64,000 nucleotides of DNA from Clostridia bacterium (lineage in GTDB: Bacteria > Bacillota > Clostridia > TANB77 > CAG-508). The stretch lies in the NCBI GenBank assembly GCA_045643465.1, contig JAZUKV010000033.1, positions 24,295 through 88,294 on the forward strand. Reading direction: 5' to 3'. Shown here piece by piece: positions 1,244 through 38,056 of the stretch; the stretch's first letter is position 1; each line of letters starts with the position of its first letter. Under the pieces are notes generated by a model that had not been told where the DNA came from, made no database searches, and worked only from the letters and a program-made list of their open reading frames with translations. Position numbers and translations under genes: made by a program.

Positions 1244-1504
1244 TTGGTGATGATACCAAGCAAGGCATTAGCAATGCAAATATTTGTAAAAACACTTAAA
1301 GGGAAAACAATAACATTAGAAGTTGAACCAAGTGACACTATGGAAAATGTTAAAGCAAAAATTCAAGATAAAGAAGGAATAACACTAGATCAACAAAGAT
1401 TGATATTTTCAGGAAAACAATTAGAGGATAATAGAACATTAGCAGATTATAATATTCAAAAAGAAAGTACATTACAGTTAATATTAAGATTAGAAAGACT
1501 TTAA
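1244..1504 (+). CDS. Ubiquitin-like protein (core 1274-1504), ending LRLERL with no Gly-Gly
   Basis: The translation [76 protein letters not shown] is identical to human ubiquitin at 64 of 76 positions, by hand alignment from memory. Confidence 0.85.
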
Positions 1505-4367: not shown

Positions 4368-4730
4368 ATGAAGAATAAAGAATTTATTTATAAAATATTA
4401 ATAGGCTTTTTGGCTGGAATAGTAAATGGATTATTTGCAAGTGGTGGTGGAATGATATTAGTACCAGCATTTATATATTTACTAGATATGAAAGATAAAG
4501 AAGCAAGGGCAACATCAGTAATTTGTATATTGCCAATGGTAGTTACCAGTGGATTTTTTTATTATAGAAATAATTATATTGATTGGAAAATAGGATTACT
4601 TTGTGCTATAGGAGGAACATTGGGAGGAATTGTAGGTGCAAAGTTATTAAATAAAGTTCCTACTAAATATTTAAAATATGCCTTTACATTATTCTTGATA
4701 TATGCATCATATAAGTTAATTTTTATTTAG
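4368..4730 (+). CDS. Half-size TSUP (TauE/SafE) family membrane protein, 4 TM
   Basis: GLFASGGGMILVP motif and four hydrophobic segments. Confidence 0.8.
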   Translation: MKNKEFIYKILIGFLAGIVNGLFASGGGMILVPAFIYLLDMKDKEARATSVICILPMVVTSGFFYYRNNYIDWKIGLLCAIGGTLGGIVGAKLLNKVPTKYLKYAFTLFLIYASYKLIFI

Positions 4731-4747
4731 GAAAGGAACGAATTTTT

Positions 4748-5120
4748 ATGATAGAAATTTTGACAGGATTTGTTTCGCGGAATAATAAGTGGAACTGGAA
4801 TGGGGGGTGGCACTATATTAATATTGTGCTTATCAATATTTTTAAGTTTGAACCAAAAGATAGCTCAAGCTACGAATCTAATATTTTTTATACCAACATC
4901 AATAGCTGCGATATATATTAATATAAGACAAAAAAATATTAATTTTAAAGTTGCTCAAATAATAATAGTATTTGGAATTATAGGAGCTATAGTAGGAGCC
5001 ATTATAGCTCAAAAGATAGATGTGAAATTGTTAAAAAAGTTATTCGGAGTTTTTCTTGCTATTGTTGCTATACATGAAATATATGTAATTATTAAAGAGC
5101 GTAGAGGCAAAGTAGAATAG
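4748..5120 (+). CDS. Second half-size TSUP (TauE/SafE) protein with an apparent 1-nt frameshift near 4769-4775
   Basis: An SD plus ATG at 4748 gives MIEILTGF. The family-like sequence FRGIISGTGMGGGTILI continues in the next frame from 4770. Confidence 0.65.
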
Positions 5121-5751: not shown

Positions 5752-6336
5752 ATGAAAATTATATTAGCATCAGGATCTCCAAGAAGAAAAGAGCTATTAA
5801 GTTTATTTGTTAAAAATTTTGAAGTTATGATAAGCGGGGTAGATGAAAACATAGCAGAAAATTTAATACCAGAAGAATTAGCTTCAAAATTAGCATATAT
5901 CAAAGCTAAAGATATTTTTGATAAAACTAATGGAGATAGAATTATTATTGGATCAGATACAATAGTAACAAAAAATGGGAAGATATATGGAAAACCCAAA
6001 AATAAAGCTCATGCTAAAGAGATGATAAAGGATTTGATAAGTGGAAATGGTGTTCATAGTGTAATAACAGGACTTTGTGTAATTATAGAAGAAAATGGTA
6101 AATATAAAGAATATAAGACATTTGATGAGGTAAAAGTTTTTTTGAAGCATATCACAGATGAAGAAATAGAACGTTGGATAAATACCGGAAAGGCAATGGA
6201 CAAAGCAGGGGCATATGGAGTGCAAAACGAATTTTGTGTATTCGTAGAGAAAATTGAAGGAAATTATACAACAGTAGTAGGACTTCCAACACATAAATTA
6301 TATGATATAATTAAGGATTATATAAGGGAATTTTAA
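5752..6336 (+). CDS. maf: Maf-like nucleoside triphosphate pyrophosphatase (septum formation protein)
   Basis: MKIILASGSPRRKELL N-terminus. An SD precedes the ATG at 5752, so the track start at 5731 is probably too early. Confidence 0.9.
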   Translation: MKIILASGSPRRKELLSLFVKNFEVMISGVDENIAENLIPEELASKLAYIKAKDIFDKTNGDRIIIGSDTIVTKNGKIYGKPKNKAHAKEMIKDLISGNGVHSVITGLCVIIEENGKYKEYKTFDEVKVFLKHITDEEIERWINTGKAMDKAGAYGVQNEFCVFVEKIEGNYTTVVGLPTHKLYDIIKDYIREF

Positions 6337-26727: not shown

Positions 26728-26802
26728 TGGCTGGGGTACTGTGATTCGAACACAGGAATGTCGGAGTCAGAGTCCGATGCCTTACCGCTTGGCGATACCC
26801 CA
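26728..26802 (-). tRNA. tRNA-Gln (anticodon CUG) with encoded CCA
   Basis: The reverse complement folds as a cloverleaf. The acceptor stem is TGGGGTA/TACCCCA, the anticodon stem is tcgga/tccga with loop cuCUGac, a GTTCGAATC T-loop is present, and the 3' end is GCCA. Confidence 0.9.
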
Positions 26803-26883
26803 ATATAAGTAAATTACATTAAAAATAATAACATAGTATGAATCAAAAATCAATTAAAATTTTATATTATATATAACTTTTTA

Positions 26884-27188
26884 AACTTTTTTTCATAGAA
26901 TATATAAACTATTTTATGGAGGAAAGATATGGCAAAAATTTTAGTATATAATAATAATACAAATAGAATGGAAACATATTATCGTGGAGAGCAAGAAGCA
27001 ATGCCGTATAATGCTAATAATACACTATTAGTAAGAGAATTTAGAGGAGCAAGTAAAAGTAAAACTTTATGGACTACTAGAAGCACTATGCTTGCATGGA
27101 ATTCTTTAAGATATATATATGGTGCTCCAATAAAAGTAGGATTTGCTTTTAGAAGACCATGGGAAGGTGGCCATACAGGGTAATCACA
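26884..27188 (+). repeat. Left copy of a ~305 bp direct repeat covering the promoter, SD and first 84 codons of the M15 peptidase gene
   Basis: Aligned by eye to 37334-37635. The coding part is 253/255 identical. The upstream ~45 nt is more diverged and has one indel. Confidence 0.9.
26929..27183 (+). pseudogene. Truncated 5' copy (84 codons) of the M15 peptidoglycan peptidase gene
   Basis: Identical to the N-terminus of 37376-38056 except K45 for Q45. It ends at a TAA where the full copy has CAA, just before the metal-binding SQHxxxxxxD motif. Confidence 0.85.
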
Positions 27189-27445
27189 TGACTAAATACA
27201 TACAGTTGAACATATAAAAATTTGAGATAGAAGATAGATAGAAATAGTGTTTTTAGATAATATGTAATTTATAATTATTAGTGATACTTATAGTGTGTAT
27301 AAGAAAAAAGAATTGGAAAGAACTCCTAATTTATGTTAACATAAAACATAATAGACATGTCATAAATACGAAAGAATATGTAATAGTTTTGTAATAGCAA
27401 TAAATTAAATGGATTATTTAAATATAAATTTTAGGAGGGAAAAAT

Positions 27446-29107
27446 ATGACAAGAGACGAGTTAGAAGAACAAATAAGAAGCGTATTAAGTAAAAAATTAT
27501 CACAAGAACAAATGACAAGAGGAAAAATAAGTGAAGAAAATGTGGCTATTATAGCAGACAGAATAGTAAGTGCTATGGGACCAGAACTTGAAAAATATAT
27601 ATCAGAAGTTGAAATTGAAAGGACTTCTAATCCAGATGAATTTGCTGAAAAAGTAATTGAGAGCAAAATAGAATACGGTTATTATGGCGACAGGAGTGGT
27701 TATCACAAGGATGATGGTACTAGCTCTAGTTTTACAACACCAGTATATGGAAACTTAGAACCAGGAAACTATCATTATGATTATGTTGTCTATTCAGATT
27801 TATCTAGTGAAGAAAACGAAGAAAAGAACTTACCAGATTTTTCAATGAATGGATTACAAGTTGCTATTGTTGACAGAATTGATGATTATGCTTCAGGAAC
27901 AGCAATTCAAATATATATACCAGAAGAGAGAGAATACGAAGTTGTAAGTTATAAAGAAATGAAAGAAATTGCTGAGAAGGAAAAAAGAACACCATTTGTT
28001 AAATTAGTAAATCAATTAATGCTAAAAATGGAAGCATCATTAATAGTAGAAGGGTCAGAAGGATACAGAAACTATACTGATTTTGGAAGAAGAATATTGA
28101 GTGAAATAATGGGAACAGACGAATATATGACTGGTGCAACAGAAACTAGCGAAAGTGAAATTAATAAAGATAACTGTTTTACTATTGGAATGTTGAAGGG
28201 TGAATATTCTGAAACATATAGTTATGATAAGAAAATGGATTGTGATATTGCATTTGAACAATATCTTGATATAGAGTTGTTAGAAAATGATAAAGTTAGA
28301 TTAATGGTTAGAACTATGGACTATGATGAAACTAGAGCTGATGAAGATATGGAAAGAAATTATTATCCAGTAAGTGTGGTAGTTTCTATAGAAGAATTAC
28401 AGAAGTTTTCTGATTCTTTACCAGGATTGTATCCAAAGCTTCCTGAGGGAATGATTGCTAATGAACAGTTTTTCAATGATAATGGAAGATTTTCTGAAGA
28501 TGAAGTTAGAGAGTTTTTGAAACAAAAATATGTACCAGGACAATTCTTAGATATTGGTGAGTATAAACATGGAGACAAATATATAAATATTCCAAATGAA
28601 ATGGTAACCGAGCTAACAGCTGATATGTATGAACAATATAAAGAAAATTTAGTTGAGGTGTCTATACCATACTCAGTTAAAAAAATAGATAAAGGAACTT
28701 TTTCTAATTGTCCTAAATTAAAAACTGTAATAATGTTTGATATTCCAGAAGTGAAGAATCCTTTCGAATTATTTGAAAACTGTAATGAATTGGATAAAAT
28801 ACTTATTGTACCACAAGAGGCAAGCAAATTTTATAGAAAAGAAAATGATCTTCATGAAAATTTATCTATTGGACAAAGTATTAGACAAAATGAAAATGGA
28901 GAAATGGTAACGACTTACCATGTGTTAGATTGTAATTTTGAAAAAAAATGTAGTTTAAAGGAGATTAATAAGCCTAAACATGATATTTCAGATGTTACAG
29001 AGGTAATTTCTGATAGAAGAAAAGAGAGCATTAATGGAGTTGTTAATGAAATTGTTAAAGCTACGCGTGATACTGAGAAAGACGTTAAAGAATCACAAGA
29101 AATATAA
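27446..29107 (+). CDS. Orphan acidic protein A (553 aa) with a C-terminal BspA-type leucine-rich repeat
   Basis: Strong SD. VSIPYSVKKIDKGTFSNCPKLKTVIM...FENCNELDKILIV fits the LRR_5 pattern. No signal peptide and no NTPase motif seen. Confidence 0.8.
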   Translation: MTRDELEEQIRSVLSKKLSQEQMTRGKISEENVAIIADRIVSAMGPELEKYISEVEIERTSNPDEFAEKVIESKIEYGYYGDRSGYHKDDGTSSSFTTPVYGNLEPGNYHYDYVVYSDLSSEENEEKNLPDFSMNGLQVAIVDRIDDYASGTAIQIYIPEEREYEVVSYKEMKEIAEKEKRTPFVKLVNQLMLKMEASLIVEGSEGYRNYTDFGRRILSEIMGTDEYMTGATETSESEINKDNCFTIGMLKGEYSETYSYDKKMDCDIAFEQYLDIELLENDKVRLMVRTMDYDETRADEDMERNYYPVSVVVSIEELQKFSDSLPGLYPKLPEGMIANEQFFNDNGRFSEDEVREFLKQKYVPGQFLDIGEYKHGDKYINIPNEMVTELTADMYEQYKENLVEVSIPYSVKKIDKGTFSNCPKLKTVIMFDIPEVKNPFELFENCNELDKILIVPQEASKFYRKENDLHENLSIGQSIRQNENGEMVTTYHVLDCNFEKKCSLKEINKPKHDISDVTEVISDRRKESINGVVNEIVKATRDTEKDVKESQEI

Positions 29108-29124
29108 TAACTAAGGAGTAAAAT

Positions 29125-29454
29125 ATGGTAAGTGTAGAATTTAGAGAGAGCATTACTGAAATTTTGGAGATATTAAATCATATGGAGAAACGTTATACAG
29201 ATAAGATTCCTAAAAAGTTTATGTCATTTTTAGAAGAAAATAAGTCTACTGCCTATGAGCCTAATTTTGATCATTCAAGAAAACTAAGTGAATTGAATTT
29301 AAAGGAAAAGACAAAAGACTTTTTGGCAATTATGTATATTAAATATTGGTGCTCTCTAGAAGAAAAAGCAAAGTATGAAGATTCCCTTATAGAAAATGAA
29401 AGAAGATATCAAGAAAAAATAAAAAGATTATATAATGTTACTAATAATTTTTAA
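29125..29454 (+). CDS. Small partner protein a (109 aa), paralogous to 32195-32635
   Basis: SD (aaggag). It shares a DKIP...(D/A)YEP...D motif and overall spacing with protein b. Confidence 0.75.
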   Translation: MVSVEFRESITEILEILNHMEKRYTDKIPKKFMSFLEENKSTAYEPNFDHSRKLSELNLKEKTKDFLAIMYIKYWCSLEEKAKYEDSLIENERRYQEKIKRLYNVTNNF

Positions 29455-29461
29455 TTATAAA

Positions 29462-29505
29462 AGAAACTCAAAACAAGTAATGATACGGCTTTGAGCTTCT
29501 TTTTG
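29462..29505 (+). terminator. Candidate terminator
   Basis: agaaactcaaa...tttgagcttct (one mismatch) followed by a T-run. Confidence 0.5.
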
Positions 29506-29575
29506 GCTATACATAGAGTATTGTTTACAAATAAATTTATATGGTATAATGAATGTGTGGTTAAGGAGGTTTAGT

Positions 29576-29614
29576 TTGAAAGAAATGAACTTTCTTTGCT
29601 ATATGTGCCTTTGA
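29576..29614 (+). CDS. 12-codon uORF (TTG start), or the displaced true start of protein B
   Basis: The only strong SD in the region (aaggagg) lies 6 nt upstream. It reads MKEMNFLCYMCL and overlaps the B frame out of frame. Confidence 0.3.
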   Translation: MKEMNFLCYMCL

Positions 29615-32217
29615 GCGAAGTGAGAAAGGAATGTGAGTTTTCTATGAATGTAAGTAAAATGTTTAATTATATGAATAGGCTACCAATAGAATTAGACAGA
29701 CTTTTAGAGGAAATAAATAAATTAAATTCTGGAAAGTTAAATTATTCTATCCAAGAGCTACAATCACTTGATTTATCATCGGATAAAAGTGAAAATTTCA
29801 GAATTTTAACGGAGACAAATGAGTATCTAGGATTGTGCAATGCTTATTTTTCAGAGAATCGACCTGGAAACTCACGTGCAAGAAATGCATATGGAGAGTA
29901 TTTAGATAAGAAAAACTTAAGCGATGATGTAGATATTGACATTTCTGATTTAAAAAATAAAGTATTTACGTTAGCGGATTTATCGTTTAAAGCAAATAAG
30001 TTAACAAAGGTAATTTGCGAAAATACTATTGATGTTTTAGAAGGTAAAAGAATAAATTCAGATGGTGCGGATGTAAAAAATCCTGAACTTAAATACGTAA
30101 TTGAAGAATTGCAAGATATATATATAAATTCTAATGAAGAAAAATATCGTAGAAATTCTGTTGAGGACCAATTATCAGGTTTAGTTGAAAAACTTAAGGT
30201 GAAAAAAAATAATGCTTGGAGAAAGAATTTTGACCCTTCTCTTTCTGATGAAAAGGCAATAGATCTGTTATTTAATGACTTGTGTTGTATTTGGAATATT
30301 AGAGATGTATTGTACGAAGTGAAAACTCAGCTAAACACGGAGTTAATTAGATGTTTAATTGAAGATAATTATACAGAATTTAAAAATTGGGGATTTGCGA
30401 AAGATGAAAATGGCAAATTAGTATTTAATTTTGATTCGAAGCAAGTTGCTGAGAGATATGGATATCATATACCGGAAAAAATGCAGGATAGAGTCTTAAG
30501 TGAGCAATTAATTAAAGAATATGAAAATGGTAATGTTCCGTACATATTAGATTTTACGAGCATAATCAGAAAAAACAATCTTGATAGAATTGTAAATAAT
30601 TTGGGCTATGATGGAAGGGAATTCTTGAGTCAGTACCGACCAAGAGCTGTAGATTTATTGACGAGTATTGATTTAGAAAATTACAATCAAGCTAATTATG
30701 AGAAGATAAACGAACTATATTTATTGGGAAAGTTCATGTCAGAAGGCTTATACAATCGAATTCAGAAGGATCATCCAGAACTTGAAAAGAACTGTAAAAT
30801 ATTAAAAGAATGGGTTAATCCATCAAAAGATAGTAAATTTGACCTATCAGAATTAAAAAAACAAGCTTATCACACAAAATATGAAGAGTATCTTAAAGGT
30901 AAGATAGAAGAGATTCTAATGGGGACAGGTGATAGTAATGGAAGAATTTATATTCAAAGTGGAAATAATTTGGATATACAAGCATCAATATATGCATTAA
31001 AAAAGCATATGAAGGATAATTTTCAAAAGAATATTGATGTTTATAAAATAGATGCTGGTGAGCAAATTGAAGGTAGAGGATTATACTTAGATGCTGGAAG
31101 ATTAGAAGGCATTGAAGGTTATGTTAAAAATGTGAAAAATTACGAAAAAATCCCCGTAGTAAGAGTTATAAATGCAAATATTTTAAGAGCACAAAAGTCG
31201 ACTTGTGGAGTATTAAAGCAGTATGGTATTTATGTACCGGACAAAATTGTTCAATATGCAGATGGCGTACATGTTGAAAAGATTCTATTGGCAAGACATG
31301 GTGTAAATGTATGCCGATACTTATCGAATAAAAAATTATTTGATTTTGCTGAAGAAAGAAGAGCAGATGGTACATATTTATTTGATACGGAACTTACAGA
31401 CGAGGAGCTAAAAAAATATTCTACAATACCAAAAAAAGGTAAAGGTCAAGCGGTTGACTTAATTGCAGAATGTGACAAAAGGGAAAAAATGATTAGAAGA
31501 GATGTAAAGTATATTGCTAATAATACGTATACTATACATACAAAAGAAGGAGATAAATATTTAGCTATTGCAGATCACCATGTAAACAATGGTGCTATGA
31601 TTTCATACTCGTTAGGATGTGATTATTATTTATCTGTAGCGGATAATCCTGCAGAATTTGATAAAACTCAAAATTATTATATACCGGGCCGTGCGACGTT
31701 TGCGGTTAATGCTAATCCAAGAAAAGGTGATGGAACATTGCCTGAACAGCTGATAGAATGGTGCAAACAATTAAGAGATGATGGTAAAAATGATAAATTT
31801 AAGATGTATACCGTTGCAAGAGATTGGTCAAGTGGAATTACAAGAAAAGAAGGTACAGAGGAAAAGCCTTTTGTAAAAAAGACCAAAGATCAAGTTGTAT
31901 TTGGAGGACGAAAAACGCCGCATTTATTTGTTACATTTAATGATAACAAAAAAAGTGGAGATAATTTGAAAGATGAAATAATTGCTGCTTTGTTGGATGA
32001 AATTAGAGGTAAAAACAAAATTGAGAAGACAAATCCTATGTTTCTTATGAATACAAGTGTAGGTAATATGAATCTTGCTAATGCTAAAGATTTAATGTAT
32101 AGTATTATAAATAGTTTTGAGACAGAGCTAACAATGGAAGAGCAACAAGTTAAAGTTATTGAGGCTATTGCTAAAGAAAAGGGAGAGGTTGATCATGGTA
32201 GTATCATTCAAAAGTAA
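29596..32217 (+). CDS. Orphan protein B (about 857-873 aa), no family recognised
   Basis: Long ORF. Candidate starts are TTG 29596 (no SD), ATG 29644 (weak SD), or 29576 if a 1-nt indel is corrected. It has its own TATAAT promoter at about 29545. Confidence 0.8.
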   Translation: MLYVPLSEVRKECEFSMNVSKMFNYMNRLPIELDRLLEEINKLNSGKLNYSIQELQSLDLSSDKSENFRILTETNEYLGLCNAYFSENRPGNSRARNAYGEYLDKKNLSDDVDIDISDLKNKVFTLADLSFKANKLTKVICENTIDVLEGKRINSDGADVKNPELKYVIEELQDIYINSNEEKYRRNSVEDQLSGLVEKLKVKKNNAWRKNFDPSLSDEKAIDLLFNDLCCIWNIRDVLYEVKTQLNTELIRCLIEDNYTEFKNWGFAKDENGKLVFNFDSKQVAERYGYHIPEKMQDRVLSEQLIKEYENGNVPYILDFTSIIRKNNLDRIVNNLGYDGREFLSQYRPRAVDLLTSIDLENYNQANYEKINELYLLGKFMSEGLYNRIQKDHPELEKNCKILKEWVNPSKDSKFDLSELKKQAYHTKYEEYLKGKIEEILMGTGDSNGRIYIQSGNNLDIQASIYALKKHMKDNFQKNIDVYKIDAGEQIEGRGLYLDAGRLEGIEGYVKNVKNYEKIPVVRVINANILRAQKSTCGVLKQYGIYVPDKIVQYADGVHVEKILLARHGVNVCRYLSNKKLFDFAEERRADGTYLFDTELTDEELKKYSTIPKKGKGQAVDLIAECDKREKMIRRDVKYIANNTYTIHTKEGDKYLAIADHHVNNGAMISYSLGCDYYLSVADNPAEFDKTQNYYIPGRATFAVNANPRKGDGTLPEQLIEWCKQLRDDGKNDKFKMYTVARDWSSGITRKEGTEEKPFVKKTKDQVVFGGRKTPHLFVTFNDNKKSGDNLKDEIIAALLDEIRGKNKIEKTNPMFLMNTSVGNMNLANAKDLMYSIINSFETELTMEEQQVKVIEAIAKEKGEVDHGSIIQK

Positions 32218-32635
32218 AAATACATATTCAGAGGTTTTTGAATTATTGAAATATGTTGATAGAAATGATTTAGATAAAATACCAATAGATATTTTAAATG
32301 CGATAAAAGATAACAGAAATAAAGATTATGAACCGAAAATTGATTTTAGTAATTTAAAGAATTGTATAAGCGACGAAGCGGCAGCTCTTTATGTAGGATT
32401 ATGTAAAAAGTACATAGTTCAAGATAAGAGCGAGATTCAGGGTATTAATAAGGTATTATATGAAAATGAAATAAAGAAAAATGCAAAGACGGATTATGCT
32501 GTTTTTCATACTGAAGATGAAAGTAAGAATGAAAGTACTGAGTCGTTAGTGGTGTACAAAGAGAGCTCTATACGTAAAATTATAAATAGATTGAAATCTA
32601 TATTTAGAAGCGGAGGGAAAAAGCGTGGCAATTAA
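32195..32635 (+). CDS. Small partner protein b (146 aa), paralogous to 29125-29454
   Basis: SD (gggagagg) plus ATG at 32195, overlapping the end of B by 23 nt. It carries the DKIP...DYEP motif. Confidence 0.75.
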   Translation: MVVSFKSKNTYSEVFELLKYVDRNDLDKIPIDILNAIKDNRNKDYEPKIDFSNLKNCISDEAAALYVGLCKKYIVQDKSEIQGINKVLYENEIKKNAKTDYAVFHTEDESKNESTESLVVYKESSIRKIINRLKSIFRSGGKKRGN

Positions 32636-33506
32636 TTTTGATTATTACAAAACATTTTATTATGTAGCAAAATATAAAAAGATATCGTTAGCTGCAGAGA
32701 AGCTTTATGTTTCTCAACCGGCAATAACACAGACAATACAGAAGCTTGAAGATCAGCTAGGAAGCAACTTGTTTACTAGAACAAAAACGGGTATGGAGCT
32801 GACTGAAGTCGGAAAGAAACTATATGAGTTTACAAGTCAGAGTGTTGAGGTTTTAGATAATGTTGAATACAGATTTAGTAAATATGAAAATCTCGAAGAG
32901 GGTGAGGTTCGTATAAGAACAGGTAGCAATGTTGCGAAAATGATTTTATACGATGCCATTGAGAAGTTTGGTAAAGATTATCCAAATATTAAAATCGAAA
33001 TTGCAACAGGTGCCCCAAATCAATCAGTAGAGATGCTTCATACAGGCGAAATTGATATGGTACTAGTATATTTACCATATGAGCTAGAATATAGCAATTT
33101 ACAGGTTACAGAGTGCGCCAAAAAGGAATATCTTTTTGCTATGAGTAAGAAATATCAAGAAGATAACAATGTTGTAATAAACGAGATTACGGATTTAAAC
33201 AAGTATTCACTAATAATACCAAAAAAGAATTCAGCAACGAGAAAAATATTTGATAGCTACTACAAGGATTACATAACTTCATATCATTACGAAGTTGCTC
33301 AAGAGCAAATGAAAAAAGAGTTTATTAAGAGGGATATGGGGATAGGTTTTATCATCAAAGATGAAGTAAAAGAAGAACTAAAAAGTGGCGAAATTGTTGA
33401 GATTGAACTACCAAATATGAATGTTGAAGGTGCTATAGGTGCTATTACTTTTAATCATAAGTTAAACAGTTTTGCAACAAATAAATTATTGCAATATATG
33501 AAGTAA
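32625..33506 (+). CDS. LysR-family transcriptional regulator
   Basis: The N-terminal HTH reads FYYVAKYKKISLAAEKLYVSQPAITQTIQKLEDQLG. GTG start with a ggaggg SD, overlapping the end of b by 11 nt. Confidence 0.9.
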   Translation: MAINFDYYKTFYYVAKYKKISLAAEKLYVSQPAITQTIQKLEDQLGSNLFTRTKTGMELTEVGKKLYEFTSQSVEVLDNVEYRFSKYENLEEGEVRIRTGSNVAKMILYDAIEKFGKDYPNIKIEIATGAPNQSVEMLHTGEIDMVLVYLPYELEYSNLQVTECAKKEYLFAMSKKYQEDNNVVINEITDLNKYSLIIPKKNSATRKIFDSYYKDYITSYHYEVAQEQMKKEFIKRDMGIGFIIKDEVKEELKSGEIVEIELPNMNVEGAIGAITFNHKLNSFATNKLLQYMK

Positions 33507-33515
33507 AAATGTGGT

Positions 33516-33559
33516 GGATACCATTTATAAGTTAAGCTTATAGATGGTATTCTTTTTTT
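33516..33559 (+). terminator. Rho-independent terminator
   Basis: gataccatttataag...cttatagatggtat followed by T7. Confidence 0.65.
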
Positions 33560-33627
33560 GTATTTTACGAGAGGCAGGGAATATGCTAATATTATTATGT
33601 AAATAAAAAGAAGGGAATTTATTTGAT

Positions 33628-35850
33628 ATGGAAAAGTATGAAAATAAAACAAATGAAGAAATAGAATTTAAGAAGTACTTAGAAGAGTTTGAATTTAATC
33701 AAATGCATAGTAATAAAAGAATCTATGATGAAGATAATGACGAGGTTGAATATTTTGATGATGTAGATGAGGATGCTAGACATCAACTAATACATCAGGA
33801 GAGTAAGATAGGTCAAAGAGTATGCGAGACGAAGCTTTTTATTGATGAGAATATAGATTTCTTTAATTATGACACCAAAGGCCATAGCAAAGCAGATTGT
33901 GACACTAAAGATTCTTGTATGTTTTGGGCGTTATCAATGTACTGTGGCGGATGTGAATTTAATGAAAAAATATTTTTCAAAGCCTTTGAATTAATGGAAA
34001 ATAATGATATAGTGTATTTTTTATCGCATGAAGATGTTAATCATTTTTGTGACAATATTGACTTTGTAAAGAAAATGATAGAGCATTCAGGTGCGCCTAT
34101 AGAAGTATTTTCTTCAATACCAGAAAGCTCAATTAGAAAATACTTAAACAGTAAGGATACAATGCAAATGTTGTATGATATGGATGATGTTAAGTCTAAG
34201 TTCAACGGAGCTGAAATACTATCAATCTTATTGGTTCAAGTGAAAAAAATAAAAGAATTATCAGAAGACAAAGAATTTTTAATTAATTTGATGAAAAATA
34301 TCAGAGCAATTGAAAAAATGGATGATAAATCAAATTATCTGATTTCAGGAACTATTGTCGGTATATTATCTAATATAGATAAAAAATTTTTTGCAGATAG
34401 AAATAATATAGAGGCTGTATTAAGCTTTTTTGAGGATTCAAAATATGAATTTTTATTTTTAGAGGATAGCGAGAAGGAAGAATTTTTTGATAGAGTTGTA
34501 AGTAATCCAGAGATGGCTAATGATAAGGAATTAGCATATAGATATATGTCAGTTTTTGATAGAAATGAAGGAGTAAATCCAAAGTTATATGAAGATGAAG
34601 AGTTTTTATTAAGAGTTTTGAATAACATACATGGAGCATCTTTTAGTAATATTGAAATACCTCACAGTCTATACAAGAATGAGGAAATATTGAGTAAGTA
34701 CATACACAGCAAAGATTTTTTGACGAACAAACTATTTTATGATTTTGATAATGATGTGCTTAAGAAGCTATTCAATGAGTACTATGGATATAGTATGGAA
34801 TACAGCGTTAGAAGTTTTATTGAATATTTAATAGAGAAAAAGCAATCAATAGTTGTATGCGGTGATGACGATACAAATATTGAAGAGGCGGTTAACATTA
34901 TACAAGCATGGGCTGAAGATAAAGACCTAGTTAAAATTGGACATAAAATAAATGTTATAAAAAGTACTGATAATAAAATACAAGAGAATCACTTAAATAT
35001 TGTGACTGGTGAAAATGGAAAATGTATGGGAAATAAGGAATATAATGAAGAAACGCTTGTATTGGACGGTAATAAAATATTGGAAACTTTAAAAATACTT
35101 GGGTTAGATACACGATTAGATATATATAAAATGCATGAACAATGTGAAGCTATGATTGAAAAAATTAATCAAGAAAGTAAAGAGCGAAAAATAATACCTA
35201 GAGATATTATTTATGCTGTGAATAATTCAGATTTAACAAACGGAGGGAAGAACCTCGTAGATATAAAATATCGAAGAGGATGTGATCCATATATTATTGT
35301 TTCAGTACCTCATCCTGAATATAGAAATGAGTATATTACTGAAAAAATCGATTGCAGAGAATTATATGAAATTATTAGAATTGCTAATGAAAATTCTTAT
35401 GAAGAAGGAATCGAAAAATTAAATAAAATTGCTGATGAAGGAATTAATGAGATTGTACCGATAGATAACTGGGCATCAAAAATAAGATTTAAAACCAAAG
35501 AAAATATTAAAAAAATAATTGGAACTATTGGAGAAGGCGATGATTCTCCATATGTAATTAAAAATGATATCCAAGATTCTGAAGAAGATTATCAATATGA
35601 AGTAATTATGCCACGCGAAGTTTTGGATGAAGAGTTTGGAACGGATAGCATTATATTAAAGTATGGTGAAATCAAAATGAATAAAGAGCAATTAGAGAGA
35701 TTAAATCAGAAACAAAAAGAAGTACAAAATATTATGATGAAGGCTCAAGAAAAAAAGTATATGGAAAAAAAAGTTGATGAGGCTAAAGATTTATTAAATC
35801 AATATGAAGATTTAACTGGAAATAAGAATAAGACATTTGATGGAGAGTAG
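33628..35850 (+). CDS. Orphan acidic protein C (740 aa), helical-repeat-like, no family recognised
   Basis: Long ORF. Has a Cys-rich N-terminal segment and repeated EFL(I/L)..(M/L)(K/N)N-type helices. No NTPase motif. Confidence 0.8.
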   Translation: MEKYENKTNEEIEFKKYLEEFEFNQMHSNKRIYDEDNDEVEYFDDVDEDARHQLIHQESKIGQRVCETKLFIDENIDFFNYDTKGHSKADCDTKDSCMFWALSMYCGGCEFNEKIFFKAFELMENNDIVYFLSHEDVNHFCDNIDFVKKMIEHSGAPIEVFSSIPESSIRKYLNSKDTMQMLYDMDDVKSKFNGAEILSILLVQVKKIKELSEDKEFLINLMKNIRAIEKMDDKSNYLISGTIVGILSNIDKKFFADRNNIEAVLSFFEDSKYEFLFLEDSEKEEFFDRVVSNPEMANDKELAYRYMSVFDRNEGVNPKLYEDEEFLLRVLNNIHGASFSNIEIPHSLYKNEEILSKYIHSKDFLTNKLFYDFDNDVLKKLFNEYYGYSMEYSVRSFIEYLIEKKQSIVVCGDDDTNIEEAVNIIQAWAEDKDLVKIGHKINVIKSTDNKIQENHLNIVTGENGKCMGNKEYNEETLVLDGNKILETLKILGLDTRLDIYKMHEQCEAMIEKINQESKERKIIPRDIIYAVNNSDLTNGGKNLVDIKYRRGCDPYIIVSVPHPEYRNEYITEKIDCRELYEIIRIANENSYEEGIEKLNKIADEGINEIVPIDNWASKIRFKTKENIKKIIGTIGEGDDSPYVIKNDIQDSEEDYQYEVIMPREVLDEEFGTDSIILKYGEIKMNKEQLERLNQKQKEVQNIMMKAQEKKYMEKKVDEAKDLLNQYEDLTGNKNKTFDGE

Positions 35851-35862
35851 TTGGAGGCAAAA

Positions 35863-36117
35863 ATGGAAAATGAATTCAGAAAAAAATTAAGAATGAGAAA
35901 ACAATATGATATTGTTAAAATTCTTGATGCTCAAAGAAATATTGATATAAATATAAATGATGAGTCAAAAGTACATAGTATTTTAAATAAATTAACAGCT
36001 GAGGAAAGAAAAGTACTTGCACAGTTGTATGATAATCAAATATTTGAATTAAAAAGCGTATTTAAAGACTATAAGAATCGAATTATAACGGAAAGAAAAC
36101 AACTTGGTGTTATATAA
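35863..36117 (+). CDS. Small partner protein c (84 aa)
   Basis: A ggagg SD lies 5 nt before the ATG at 35863, immediately after the stop codon of C. Confidence 0.7.
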   Translation: MENEFRKKLRMRKQYDIVKILDAQRNIDININDESKVHSILNKLTAEERKVLAQLYDNQIFELKSVFKDYKNRIITERKQLGVI

Positions 36118-36143
36118 CAGATTACTTGTTGTATCACAATAAG

Positions 36144-36176
36144 AGAAGGAGGGATTTTTCCCTCCTTTTCTTTTAC
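36144..36176. terminator. Bidirectional terminator
   Basis: gaaggaggga-ttttt-ccctcctt followed by a T-rich run. Confidence 0.65.
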
Positions 36177-36235
36177 AGTAATGATAAACGTATCAGCGAC
36201 AAAATTATCTACAACGTTTTTATCATGTCTAAGGT

Positions 36236-36613
36236 CTATTCATTTTTATCTTTATCGTTCTTTACACTTGCGACACCTTTTGTAATCTCTTCAGCCATTG
36301 TTCTTGCAGTTTTCGATACAGTAGGAGTCATTTTTTCAATTCCTTCCTGAGCAACAGGCATAACTTGTTGTGTATGGAATGCAATAAGTTCTCTTTTTTT
36401 AGAAGTCATATAGATAAATCCTGAAAACATAAGCGAAGAAATAATAACAAAAGGACCAAAGGTAATACCAAAACCTCCAGGAGATATTGTATTTCTTTTG
36501 TTAGATAGTTTTGAGCATTCTTTTTCCAATGTAGTTATTTTCGAATCAACTTCGGAATACCTATCACTAAAAGACTTATCATCTCTCCATATTTTATTTT
36601 TTTCTATTTTCAT
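36236..36613 (-). CDS. Hypothetical single-pass membrane protein (125 aa)
   Basis: ORF with a central hydrophobic segment, GFGITFGPFVIISSLMFSGFIYM. No SD is visible. Confidence 0.55.
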   Translation of the reverse strand: MKIEKNKIWRDDKSFSDRYSEVDSKITTLEKECSKLSNKRNTISPGGFGITFGPFVIISSLMFSGFIYMTSKKRELIAFHTQQVMPVAQEGIEKMTPTVSKTARTMAEEITKGVASVKNDKDKNE

Positions 36614-36655
36614 TGGTCTGTATTAAAAAATAGATTAAAAAAAGAAGGTAGTGAA

Positions 36656-37318
36656 GTGACTACAAAATGTAGTCAGTTAAAAATGTTAGCGCCTGATGGA
36701 AAAATACGTTTACGAGATGCAATGGCAACAAGTGACATATTTAGACTTATAGAATCAGTTCCAAGTCCAAAAGCCGAACCTTTTAAACTATGGCTTGCGT
36801 CTTTGGGTAAAGAAAGAATAGATGAAGTTTTTGATCCAGAAATAGCTGTTAATAGAGCGATTGATTATTATAGAAATAAAGGATATTCGGATAAATGGAT
36901 TGAAGCAAGACTAAAAGGAATACTAGATAGAAAAAATTAACAGATATATGGAAATATAATGGAATTAAAGAAAACTATGAATATGCAGTATTAACAAATG
37001 AGATATACCAAACATGGTCAGGAATGAAAGCATCAGAATATAAAAAATACAAAAATATTAGAAAAGAATCTTTAAGAGATAATATGACAGATGTTGAAGT
37101 TGCACTTACAGATTTGGGAGAAATTGCAACCCGTGAACTTGCAAAAAAAACATAAACCCCAAGGATTAAAAGCAAATAGAAAAATTGCAAAGGCAGGCGG
37201 AGAAGTTGCAAAAACTGCTCGTGACGATTTAGAACGAAAACTTGGAGAAACTGTTATTAGTAGAGATAATCAATTAAATTTTGAGTACATAGAAGATGTA
37301 AAAAAACTAAAAAAATGA
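36656..37318 (+). pseudogene. Bro-N/DinD-like (DNA-damage-inducible protein D family) gene remnant, 5'-truncated with two frameshifts
   Basis: SPKAEPFKLWLA...NRAIDYYRNKGYSDKWIEARL continues in a second frame as LTDIWKYNGIKENYEYAVLTNE...LRDNMTD. It then continues in a third frame as HKPQGLKANRKIAKAGGEVAKTARDDLE. The frame changes fall at A6 (36931-36936) and A8 (37143-37150). Confidence 0.8.
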
Positions 37319-37333
37319 AAAACGAAAAATACA

Positions 37334-37635
37334 AAACTTTCATAAAATATACAAATATTTTATGGAGGTTTTTTTATGGCAAAAATTTTAGTATATAATA
37401 ATAATACAAATAGAATGGAAACATATTATCGTGGAGAGCAAGAAGCAATGCCGTATAATGCTAATAATACACTATTAGTAAGAGAATTTAGAGGAGCAAG
37501 TAAAAGTCAAACTTTATGGACTACTAGAAGCACTATGCTTGCATGGAATTCTTTAAGATATATATATGGTGCTCCAATAAAAGTAGGATTTGCTTTTAGA
37601 AGACCATGGGAAGGTGGCCATACAGGGCAATCACA
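37334..37635 (+). repeat. Right copy of the ~305 bp direct repeat
   Basis: See 26884-27188. Confidence 0.9.
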
Positions 37636-38056
37636 GCATTTTGCAGGAGTGGCTTTTGATGCAGGCCAAACATTATCAGATAGTCAAAGATTAGTTTTAT
37701 ATAATACAGCAGTAAGTAGTGGGGTTTGGTCTTATGTGGAGCCATTAAATTTAACACCAAGATGGGTTCATTTCGATAAAAGACAATTTCCACCAGCATG
37801 TACCGCAGGAGGATATCCTTTAATTTCTAGCGGATCTAAAGGGGTATATGTATTAATAGCTCAAGATGAACTTAATACTTTAGGTTATGCAGCAGGAAGC
37901 TTAGATGGAATTTTTGGAAATAATACAAGAAATGCAGTTATAAGATATCAGAGGGCTAAAGGTCTTACAGCTGATGGAATTGTAGGATGTAATACATGGA
38001 AATCGTTACAATCAGATGTAGTGGGAATAGGCAAAAAAAATACAACGGTAGATTAA
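37376..38056 (+). CDS. M15-family peptidoglycan metallopeptidase with a C-terminal PG_binding_1 domain
   Basis: HTGQSQHFAGVAFD and WVHFD metal-site motifs. The PG-binding repeat reads LGYAAGSLDGIFGNNTRNAVIRYQRAKGLTADGIVGCNTW. Confidence 0.85.
   Translation: MAKILVYNNNTNRMETYYRGEQEAMPYNANNTLLVREFRGASKSQTLWTTRSTMLAWNSLRYIYGAPIKVGFAFRRPWEGGHTGQSQHFAGVAFDAGQTLSDSQRLVLYNTAVSSGVWSYVEPLNLTPRWVHFDKRQFPPACTAGGYPLISSGSKGVYVLIAQDELNTLGYAAGSLDGIFGNNTRNAVIRYQRAKGLTADGIVGCNTWKSLQSDVVGIGKKNTTVD

Follow-up and report, generated by a model that had tools for sequence, protein, structure and literature searches.

A C-terminal tail and a small partner gene as a co-inherited unit in the cargo of a decayed Clostridia element

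Type IV secretion substrates carry C-terminal signals and are served by dedicated adaptors or chaperones, as with VirE1–VirE2 and IcmS/IcmW; to our knowledge, no such adaptor system is known for Gram-positive gut Clostridia. In toxin–antitoxin–chaperone (TAC) systems, a C-terminal tail (ChAD) is recognized by a SecB-like chaperone (PMC5105189, PMC6377645). Polyvalent or polymorphic conflict proteins have been described from phages and conjugative elements (PMC5512222), and gene-disrupting serine-recombinase elements have been described together with their decay (PMC5704250). Here we analyze a 64,000-nt stretch of Clostridia bacterium DNA (assembly GCA_045643465.1, contig JAZUKV010000033.1), referred to as the window, which harbors a 10.4-kb island. 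Its cargo comprises three cassettes of a large ‘client’ protein plus a cognate small partner, A-a, B-b and C-c, with a LysR gene between b and C (loci outside the window carry L numbers, single relatives P numbers). Cassettes of this type have not been described before, yet they are widespread in uncultured gut Clostridia. As a previous sequence-only reading of the window had held, searches of Pfam, NCBIfam, PHROGs, PADLOC and the PDB tied them to no described defense or toxin family, and none of the described defense, toxin or phage families accommodates them.

Client tails and their small partners

The small genes a and b encode paralogs, as had been noticed from the letters alone: they align with each other (blastp E = 1e-8, 29% identity over 72 aa), and both are strong matches to one family profile. 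This family, unannotated and without a Pfam entry or a PDB relative, comprises 247 clusters of ~150-aa proteins. The proposed paralogy of the small partners does not extend to c, whose placement as a divergent a/b member was rejected at the sequence level (hhalign probability 0.5%). Instead, c represents a separate small helical family, kept after C in L001, L007, L010 and L103, and in L105 an a-type gene occupies the c position. Scanning one genome per species with 12 a-type sequences yielded 128 a/b matches, of which 79 loci were kept. Nearly all hosts are uncultured gut Clostridia/Bacillota represented by metagenome-assembled genomes (MAGs), joined by a single MAG each from Bacilli and Erysipelotrichaceae; relatives of a/b and of B were not found in IMG/VR. 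In ~78 of 90 cases the small gene sits directly behind a same-strand open reading frame (ORF) of 44–930 aa, the gap being mostly −98 to +35 nt, in line with the expectation that homologs of a and b follow a larger, variable gene.

These upstream clients are mostly unannotated and mutually unrelated. The few domains recognized among them are Amidoligase_2 (5), LRR_5 (3), HAD, Fic, HD, LysM/CI-HTH and DUF4116. Many clients, however different their bodies, end in a common tail, H-x-I/L-S/D-E-V...SDR..E.IN. A profile of the A-type tail matched 31 of 76 partner tails as compared to 11 of 745 tails of neighboring genes (Fisher p = 3e-26), and several of these 11 ‘control’ matches resemble further tail-bearing proteins of the same elements. 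Among small proteins sharing at least 60% identity (78 pairs), 81% had similar tails and 38% similar bodies; tail and partner were common to unrelated bodies in 35 pairs, the reverse occurring in two pairs only. Likewise, B-type tails (LT.TDVE...KEKG..EHDIT) are always located upstream of b-type partners, C proteins ending in AK.LL.QYE.L stand before c-type partners, and the C-like protein of L105 bears an a-type HSIDEV tail and precedes an a-type partner. At the level of sequence, the last ~45–60 residues of a client and the adjoining small gene form one co-inherited unit that is movable between unrelated bodies. Mainly from the co-variation of tail type with partner type, we infer that tail and partner interact physically.

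In L010, the tail-coding 3′ ends of two adjacent client genes (4676–4822 and 6090–6236) are 94–97% identical on gene bodies that differ, which suggests recent recombination at the tail. Locus L015 (35–5583; also L096/L097) contains three tandem client–partner cassettes of 412+150, 341+150 and 341+150 aa, two of them 100% identical. These cassettes adjoin a YefM/YoeB pair in L097, and trypsin/PDZ, Peptidase_S24 and DUF2357 genes follow downstream.

An AlphaFold model of b (120 sequences) predicts a helical bundle (aa 1–97), a disordered linker and a C-terminal helix; a Foldseek search of this model against the PDB returned no match (best E = 2.8). The C-terminal helix of b is cationic and amphipathic (YKESSIRKIINRLKSIF). 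Across the a/b family, this helix has a hydrophobic moment of 0.76, as compared to 0.46 ± 0.13 for shuffled sequences, and a net charge of ~+5. The partner of A is a short form of the family, consisting of the helical bundle only, without linker and C-terminal amphipathic helix.

The a/b cassettes are associated with mobile elements. In L098, a cassette is found between SSB/PcfK/PcfJ/primase genes and the gene for a TraG/VirD4 coupling protein, and also at this locus are sortase and adhesin genes such as Gram-positive conjugative elements typically carry. Within 7 kb of the cassettes, 78 species-representative loci showed Mob_Pre relaxase (13), tyrosine integrase (9) and large serine recombinase (8) genes, along with ABC-F ATPase (10; not a mobility gene), DUF6076 (7) and LysR (6) genes. 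A 4.7-kb element, present in L012 (8024–13133) and L014 (1279–6652), encodes a 317-aa client, an a-type partner and a Bro-N protein. The element is bracketed by repeats, of 415 nt (97% identical) and 681 nt (88% identical), that derive from an EPSP_synthase-family gene and represent its 5′ end. It does not encode an integrase itself, and its neighbor in L014 is a Mob_Pre element. This is a second, unrelated instance of the repeat-flanked layout of the window. Long flanking duplications were rejected as a hallmark of all a/b elements, being seen only in the window and in the L012/L014 element.

The island and its conserved gene module

The coordinates, sizes and overlaps given for the seven ORFs from A to c in the sequence-only reading agree with the ORF list (Table 1), and all seven ORFs are intact. 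For B, an in-frame TTG at 29596 would alternatively yield a protein of 873 aa. A 12-codon upstream ORF (uORF; TTG...TGA, 29576–29614) is located right behind a strong ribosome-binding site (RBS), at the position where B starts in its homologs, and B's own ATG at 29644 has a poor RBS. Of three terminators proposed to separate the transcription units, the hairpins after LysR and after c stood, whereas the one after a is only weak and was not picked up by a consensus terminator scan. The arrangement of weak hairpin and promoter upstream of B is also present in L001 and L010. The B promoter region itself is plain sigma-70-like and less conserved than the LysR–C intergenic region.

Table 1 Features of the island and its borders (positions in the window)
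Feature	Positions	Strand	Basis
Left repeat copy, 5′ end of M15-peptidase/PG_binding_1 gene	26892–27188	+	repeat search; alignment to right copy and L001 left junction
Element left end, ~80% nucleotide identity to left end of L001 serine-recombinase element	27189–27445	+	blastn, alignment
A, 553 aa	27446–29107	+	ORF list
a, 109 aa; 17 nt between A stop and a start	29125–29454	+	ORF list
Hairpin after a, terminator-like but weak (−11.2 kcal/mol, z −2.5)	29461–29501	+	folding
Sigma-70-like promoter past the hairpin after a, TTTACA-N17-TGGTATAAT	29524–29550	+	read from sequence
B, 857 aa from ATG aligned with homologs' start	29644–32217	+	ORF list
b, 146 aa; 23-nt overlap with B	32195–32635	+	ORF list
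LysR, 293 aa, GTG start; 11-nt overlap with b	32625–33506	+	ORF list
Hairpin after LysR (−20.3 kcal/mol, z −6.6)	33516–33552	+	folding, covariation
Conserved promoter/operator block upstream of C, GTATTTTAC, then ATGnTAnnATTATTATGTAAA	33560–33603	+	near-invariant in 7 loci
C, 740 aa	33628–35850	+	ORF list
c, 84 aa; 12 nt downstream of C	35863–36117	+	ORF list
Hairpin after c, strong, bidirectional (−22.7 kcal/mol, z −6.6)	36143–36171	.	folding
125-aa ORF, one hydrophobic segment, inside element	36236–36613	-	ORF list, Pfam, hydrophobicity
Two pieces of Bro-N-type gene, phrog_15286 / PADLOC PDC-S13	36656–36940 + 37091–37318	+	PADLOC, PHROGs, neighborhood comparison
Right repeat copy, running into intact peptidase gene	37338–38056 (repeat 37338–37635; gene 37376–38056, 226 aa)	+	ORFs, Pfam, repeat, L001 alignment

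That these genes lie on an island, as had been proposed, is borne out by its borders. A 261-nt repeat of 99% identity, extended to ~297 nt by alignment, brackets the 10.4 kb. The left copy takes the form of a truncated 84-aa ORF (26929–27183) terminating at the left junction of the element, where alignment reveals a core, AATCACA (27182–27188), common to the window and L001. By blastn, window positions 26871–29465 match L001 7264–9844. In this Clostridia MAG (GCA_017511745), the orthologous peptidase gene is split by an 11.6-kb element at the same codon (~87) at which the left junction of the window lies, and the ends of the two elements are homologous. The cargo of the L001 element consists of A-a-B-b-LysR-C-c and a Bro-like fragment, followed by a frameshifted large serine recombinase gene that adjoins the right junction. 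No large serine recombinase, defined as Resolvase plus Recombinase plus Zn_ribbon_recom, was present in window 27189–37337 (ORF list, Pfam); neither a recombinase nor an attR was found left of the right repeat copy, and neither a relaxase nor an oriT was identified in the window element. The island is a decayed derivative of a serine-recombinase integrative element, carrying accessory cargo; we class it as such, and not as a functional member, because the recombinase present in the L001 element is absent here.

The Bro-N-type gene is a pseudogene in the window and intact (293 aa) in L012/L014; PDC-S13 on the fragmented copy (E = 7e-40) is the sole strong PADLOC match of the island. The minus-strand ORF in front of it has neither a family match in Pfam nor a homolog in L001. 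The layout of the island fits an insertion-duplication with an intact gene copy in place of the element's right end; exchange with an empty allele, whether illegitimate or homologous, could have been the route. RecA-mediated recombination at the ~297-nt repeats could precisely delete the island. The left repeat copy retains the native upstream region and the intact right copy begins merely ~37 nt before its ATG; the intact peptidase gene may therefore rely on read-through from the element.

Two further features lie outside these borders. A tRNA-Gln(CTG) gene (26728–26802, minus strand) just upstream of the peptidase gene is not the integration site. When the island was compared by megablast to plasmid and phage collections, this tRNA gene alone matched, being the only part with matches to plasmid or E. 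coli records. A ubiquitin-like ORF (1244–1504, plus strand), a eukaryote-type sequence without terminal GG, is located 26 kb outside the element, and the link once drawn from it to the cassettes found no support.

The modular design that the sequence-only reading had set against random hypothetical genes is recurrent: the order B-b-LysR-C-(small gene) is found in at least six other contigs, in unrelated genomic contexts, and this recurrence exceeds chance. The module lies within a peptidase gene in L001, adjoins an Xre gene and IS110 in L004, is flanked by an AAA_14 ATPase and a ChW protein in L007, is accompanied by a second LysR and a TnpV gene in L010 and follows a NADase_transloc protein in L105, while L103/L104 contain it with a truncated B. 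The tight coupling of B, b and LysR, proposed earlier from their overlaps, holds at every locus examined. A-a, in contrast to this strictly kept order, is optional, being present in L001 and represented in L010 by a related pair of 444 and 156 aa. Identity to the window (tblastn across loci) amounts to 76–84% for LysR, 48–60% for b, 48–57% for B and 31–35% for C. Conservation within the module is thus highest for LysR, which is under far stronger constraint than the neighboring genes.

In Pfam, LysR matches both HTH_1 (E = 4e-18) and LysR_substrate (E = 2e-25) above the cut-offs, as befits a LysR-type protein. The intergenic region between LysR and C is the best conserved non-coding segment, with 62–76% column identity at loci where the C proteins share 31–35%. 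Seven of the 16 pairs of the hairpin after LysR show compensatory changes across seven loci, which marks it as an RNA terminator. The dyad at its core, ATAAG-N5-CTTAT (33527–33541), does not vary across the seven loci and constitutes a T-N11-A box. The C promoter combines a poor −35 element with a near-invariant ATGTTATnATAATTATGTAAA block at the −10 position. LysR-type transcriptional regulators generally recognize a T-N11-A dyad that is usually located near −65 of the regulated promoter. Here, ~65 nt separate the dyad center from the start site that the −10 box predicts downstream of it, lysR and C being arranged in tandem and not divergently. The dyad is therefore a candidate for the site that LysR recognizes at the C promoter, which suggests that LysR, produced from the B-b-lysR transcript, may control C-c.

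The large proteins A, B and C

As previously noted, the three large proteins are acidic (pI 4.6, 6.0 and 4.7 for A, B and C, respectively); they are also hydrophilic, with no Walker A motif and no hydrophobic, transmembrane-like segment in any of them. Pfam, NCBIfam, PHROGs and PADLOC gave nothing significant for A beyond a leucine-rich repeat (LRR), nor for a, B, C or c. The PADLOC match of c to a CARF model was non-significant (E = 0.015), and b gave a weak match to a ‘homing endonuclease’ model (E = 1e-5, 23 bits). A phage structural identity, named beforehand as a result that would speak against the modular interpretation, was not found, as none of A, a, B, b, C and c had a significant PHROG match. 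PDB sequence and profile searches with B, the a/b family, the C family and a widened DHH-like alignment likewise returned nothing.

The sequence-only reading had treated A, B and C as three equivalent unknowns, which they are not: B and C are distant paralogs, the former DHH-like, and A is a different, polymorphic tail-bearing client protein. The BspA-type LRR already recognized in A spans aa 378–458 and comprises only ~three repeats. It scores slightly below the 27.7-bit cut-off of Pfam LRR_5 (E = 6e-6, 26.6 bits) and matches PDB entries by phmmer (4gt6, E = 1e-9; 4fs7, E = 6e-9; TpLRR, E = 8e-5). A is 74% identical to its L001 homolog and carries the C-terminal tail H-x-I-S-D/E-V...SDR (~aa 505–550), which matches the tail profile with E = 1e-20.

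B consists of an N-terminal helical region, a DHH/DHHA1-like two-lobed domain (~aa 430–770) and the LT(L)TDVE...KEKG tail. An exact-sequence look-up gave no record. The earlier label ‘orphan’ does not hold, given ~10 close homologs of B among 5.8 billion proteins (all unnamed, all from Clostridia metagenomes), 75 distant representative relatives in an exhaustive search with the B profile and the numerous clusters of the a/b family. In an AlphaFold model of B (11-sequence alignment), residues ~430–770 are confidently predicted (pLDDT mostly 80–94). Of the proposed remote-homology checks, the one on b ended without a match, as reported above, and the one on B pointed to a DHH-like fold: the ~30 top Foldseek matches in the PDB were all DHH-family proteins (NrnA, RecJ, RecJ-Cdc45, family II pyrophosphatase; E = 9e-3 to 0.5), and those in BFVD were phage and giant-virus DHH phosphohydrolases and RecJ, with probabilities of up to 1.0. 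Across libraries this support is weak (E = 1e-3 to 1e-1, target-normalized TM score ≤0.42) but consistent, and residues ~430–770 of B are predicted on this basis to adopt a DHH-like fold. Neither B nor C matched DHH or DHHA1 in Pfam or NCBIfam, PDB profile searches gave no such match, and hhalign of the DHH-like profile with a bona fide NrnA-like protein gave a probability of 0.2%. Since no sequence method connects B with DHH, the assignment is made at the level of fold only.

Motif equivalence was judged by order and spacing, and by this measure the invariant residues of the B family are GNNLD at the DxD position, DAG, INAN at the DHH position, QYAD, and FGGxK at the GGGH position. The canonical motifs I (DxD), II (D), III (DHH) and IV (D) and the DHHA1 GGGH were found neither in the B family nor in the window C, which retains CGDDD and LDGN remnants only. 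Given this loss of the canonical His/Asp catalytic set, a binding or scaffold role is more likely for B and C than phosphoesterase activity.

C is composed of DUF4116-like helical repeats, a truncated, degenerate B-type DHH-like domain (~aa 378–685) and the AK.LL.QYE.L tail. The repeated helices that had been read from its sequence correspond to the DUF4116-like repeats of its relatives. A word-indexed search with C found one relative; further relatives came from gene neighborhoods and the exhaustive search with the B profile. When the two families were compared by hhalign (98.7%, E = 4e-16; B 396–779 aligned to C 378–685), B and C proved to be distant paralogs. The B profile alone misses the window C, and the link requires profile–profile comparison together with bridging relatives (P0013, P0154 and P0163). 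In these, the N-terminal region is C-like and the domain is more complete, bearing the motifs THFGDDLD, DTGGH, IIDGD, ELAD and AGGFKNP.

Readings of function and comparison with described systems

We tentatively favor, with slightly less than even confidence, a reading in which each small protein would bind the tail of its client as a dedicated, tail-specific adaptor or chaperone. In full-length partners such as b, the cationic amphipathic helix would then recruit the pair to the membrane or to a conjugative coupling protein. On this reading, B and C would act as diverged, non-catalytic binding or scaffold paralogs rather than as phosphoesterases, and LysR, co-translated with B and b, would gate C-c through the T-N11-A dyad of its promoter. 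Several points weigh against this. Short forms without the amphipathic helix exist (a, c and ~12 of 90 family members), so membrane docking cannot be universal. A relaxase or integrase was recognized within 7 kb at only 21 of 78 loci (a lower bound), and both the window island and the 4.7-kb L012 element are without transfer genes. The DHH call for B is one of fold, with the low scores given above and no link by sequence. The dyad is situated inside a covarying RNA hairpin, and its conservation may reflect termination alone; moreover, control by a metabolite-sensing LysR protein would suit transfer no better than a function resident in the cell. A further-reaching scheme, which we regard as unlikely, is an ‘address-tag’ system: the transferable ~45–60-residue tail would mark unrelated clients (DHH-like, LRR, amidoligase, Fic or HD bodies), the a/b and c adaptors would recognize the tail, and the helix would deliver the clients to the membrane or to the conjugation machinery of a helper, enabling protein co-transfer or establishment, with some modules under small-molecule control by LysR.

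Alternatively, the cassettes might be addiction or abortive-infection conflict modules, with the large proteins as toxins or effectors and the small ones as neutralizers or stabilizing chaperones. Their mobile-element location and the tight translational coupling of small to large gene fit this proposal, which would account for the persistence of the cassettes on such elements. Fic, HD or Amidoligase_2 domains do occur in some client bodies and MazE and YoeB/YefM genes near some cassettes, yet A, B and C themselves have no toxin domain and no PADLOC/Pfam match to one. B and C evolve fast relative to LysR, as conflict proteins might, but have lost the catalytic residues of their fold. The TAC systems offer a precedent for a dedicated chaperone that recognizes a C-terminal tail (PMC5105189, PMC6377645); that tail, however, sits on the antitoxin and not on the toxin. 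The constant unit here is tail plus small gene, the partner tracking the tail and not the variable body, whereas immunity co-varies with the toxin domain. This is the opposite of toxin–immunity logic and speaks against the effector–immunity pairing among the earlier candidates. We consider conflict modules a doubtful explanation.

About equally improbable, in our view, is that B, b, LysR, C and c assemble into a cytoplasmic complex, resident and regulated by a ligand, for sensing or processing a small molecule derived from a nucleotide. In this complex, the DHH-like domains would bind, the small proteins would be assembly subunits, the mobile-element location would be incidental and A-a an unrelated neighbor. 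DHH-family folds typically bind nucleotides or oligonucleotides, and such proteins head the Foldseek matches of B; distant relatives also retain the fuller metal-binding motifs THFGDDLD, DTGGH and ELAD. The strictly kept order B-b-LysR-C-(small gene), with A-a in some loci only, strong purifying selection on LysR and the conserved LysR–C promoter region would be expected of such a complex. Against this stand the patchy distribution, with so few close B homologs in so large a collection, the invariably variable or island contexts of the module, the absence of consistently linked metabolic or transport genes and the membership of b in a family whose other members partner wholly unrelated clients. 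Far less probable still, and already disfavored, is that unrelated hypothetical genes or decaying pseudogenes are hitch-hiking on a dead element and that the big-plus-small pattern is meaningless. The element is plainly decayed, its recombinase being absent and its Bro-N gene in fragments; a is truncated relative to its family, and a 12-codon uORF occupies the position of the homologs' B start. None of the seven ORFs is disrupted, however, the order and overlaps of the genes persist together with the intergenic regulatory block at 31–57% protein identity, and tail and partner co-vary.

If the pairing of tail and partner posited by the adaptor reading is real, it would represent a new and abundant protein–protein recognition module, spread over 247 clusters and many species of uncultured gut Clostridia and without a counterpart in Pfam, NCBIfam, PHROGs, PADLOC or the PDB. 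In a major, little-studied portion of the gut microbiome, it would organize what integrative and mobilizable elements carry as accessory cargo, and tail plus small gene would provide a simple rule for locating cargo or effector proteins of such elements. The cassettes supply testable candidates for protein delivery or conflict functions, and B and C add a new, probably non-catalytic branch of DHH-like proteins. Should the small proteins merely be dedicated chaperones of hypothetical proteins on dead elements, the practical importance would be modest.

Among described systems, the island as a whole resembles serine-recombinase integrative (mobilizable) elements and their decayed derivatives, as well as skin-like gene-interrupting elements: its L001 relative lies within a gene and encodes, at one of its ends, a large serine recombinase, the left junction is common to L001 and the window, and loss of recombination genes fits the described decay (PMC5704250). 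It differs in lacking a recombinase and an attR, and in that its ~297-nt, 99% identical duplication leaves an intact gene, serine recombinases making no such duplications. With DHH/DHHA1 phosphoesterases (RecJ, NrnA, GdpP, family II pyrophosphatase and the inactive Cdc45), B has in common the two-lobed fold of residues ~430–770 and motif-like positions (GNNLD, DAG, QYAD, FGGxK). Unlike them, it has an invariant N-A-N for the His pair, as well as a long N-terminal helical region and a C-terminal tail absent from known DHH proteins, and C is without half of the domain.

For the cassettes themselves, polyvalent proteins are similar in their variable bodies (Amidoligase_2, Fic, HD, LRR), their location on mobile elements and the shuffling of domains between elements. 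Here, however, one body is joined to a constant tail and served by a separate partner gene, in place of many fused domains, and the IMG/VR phage contigs contain no relatives. In TAC systems, too, a transferable C-terminal extension makes a protein depend on a dedicated small partner from the same operon, but the present partner is all-helical, ~150 aa long and without similarity to SecB, and the tailed protein is large (100–930 aa) and variable, with no toxin or antitoxin recognizable. Compared to the effector–adaptor pairs of type IV secretion, the small proteins have no homology to known adaptors, and many cassettes reside on elements without transfer genes. Cassettes do occur on conjugative or mobilizable elements, once adjoining a coupling-protein gene (L098), and they share with these pairs a constant C-terminal element on otherwise unrelated proteins together with a small dedicated partner.

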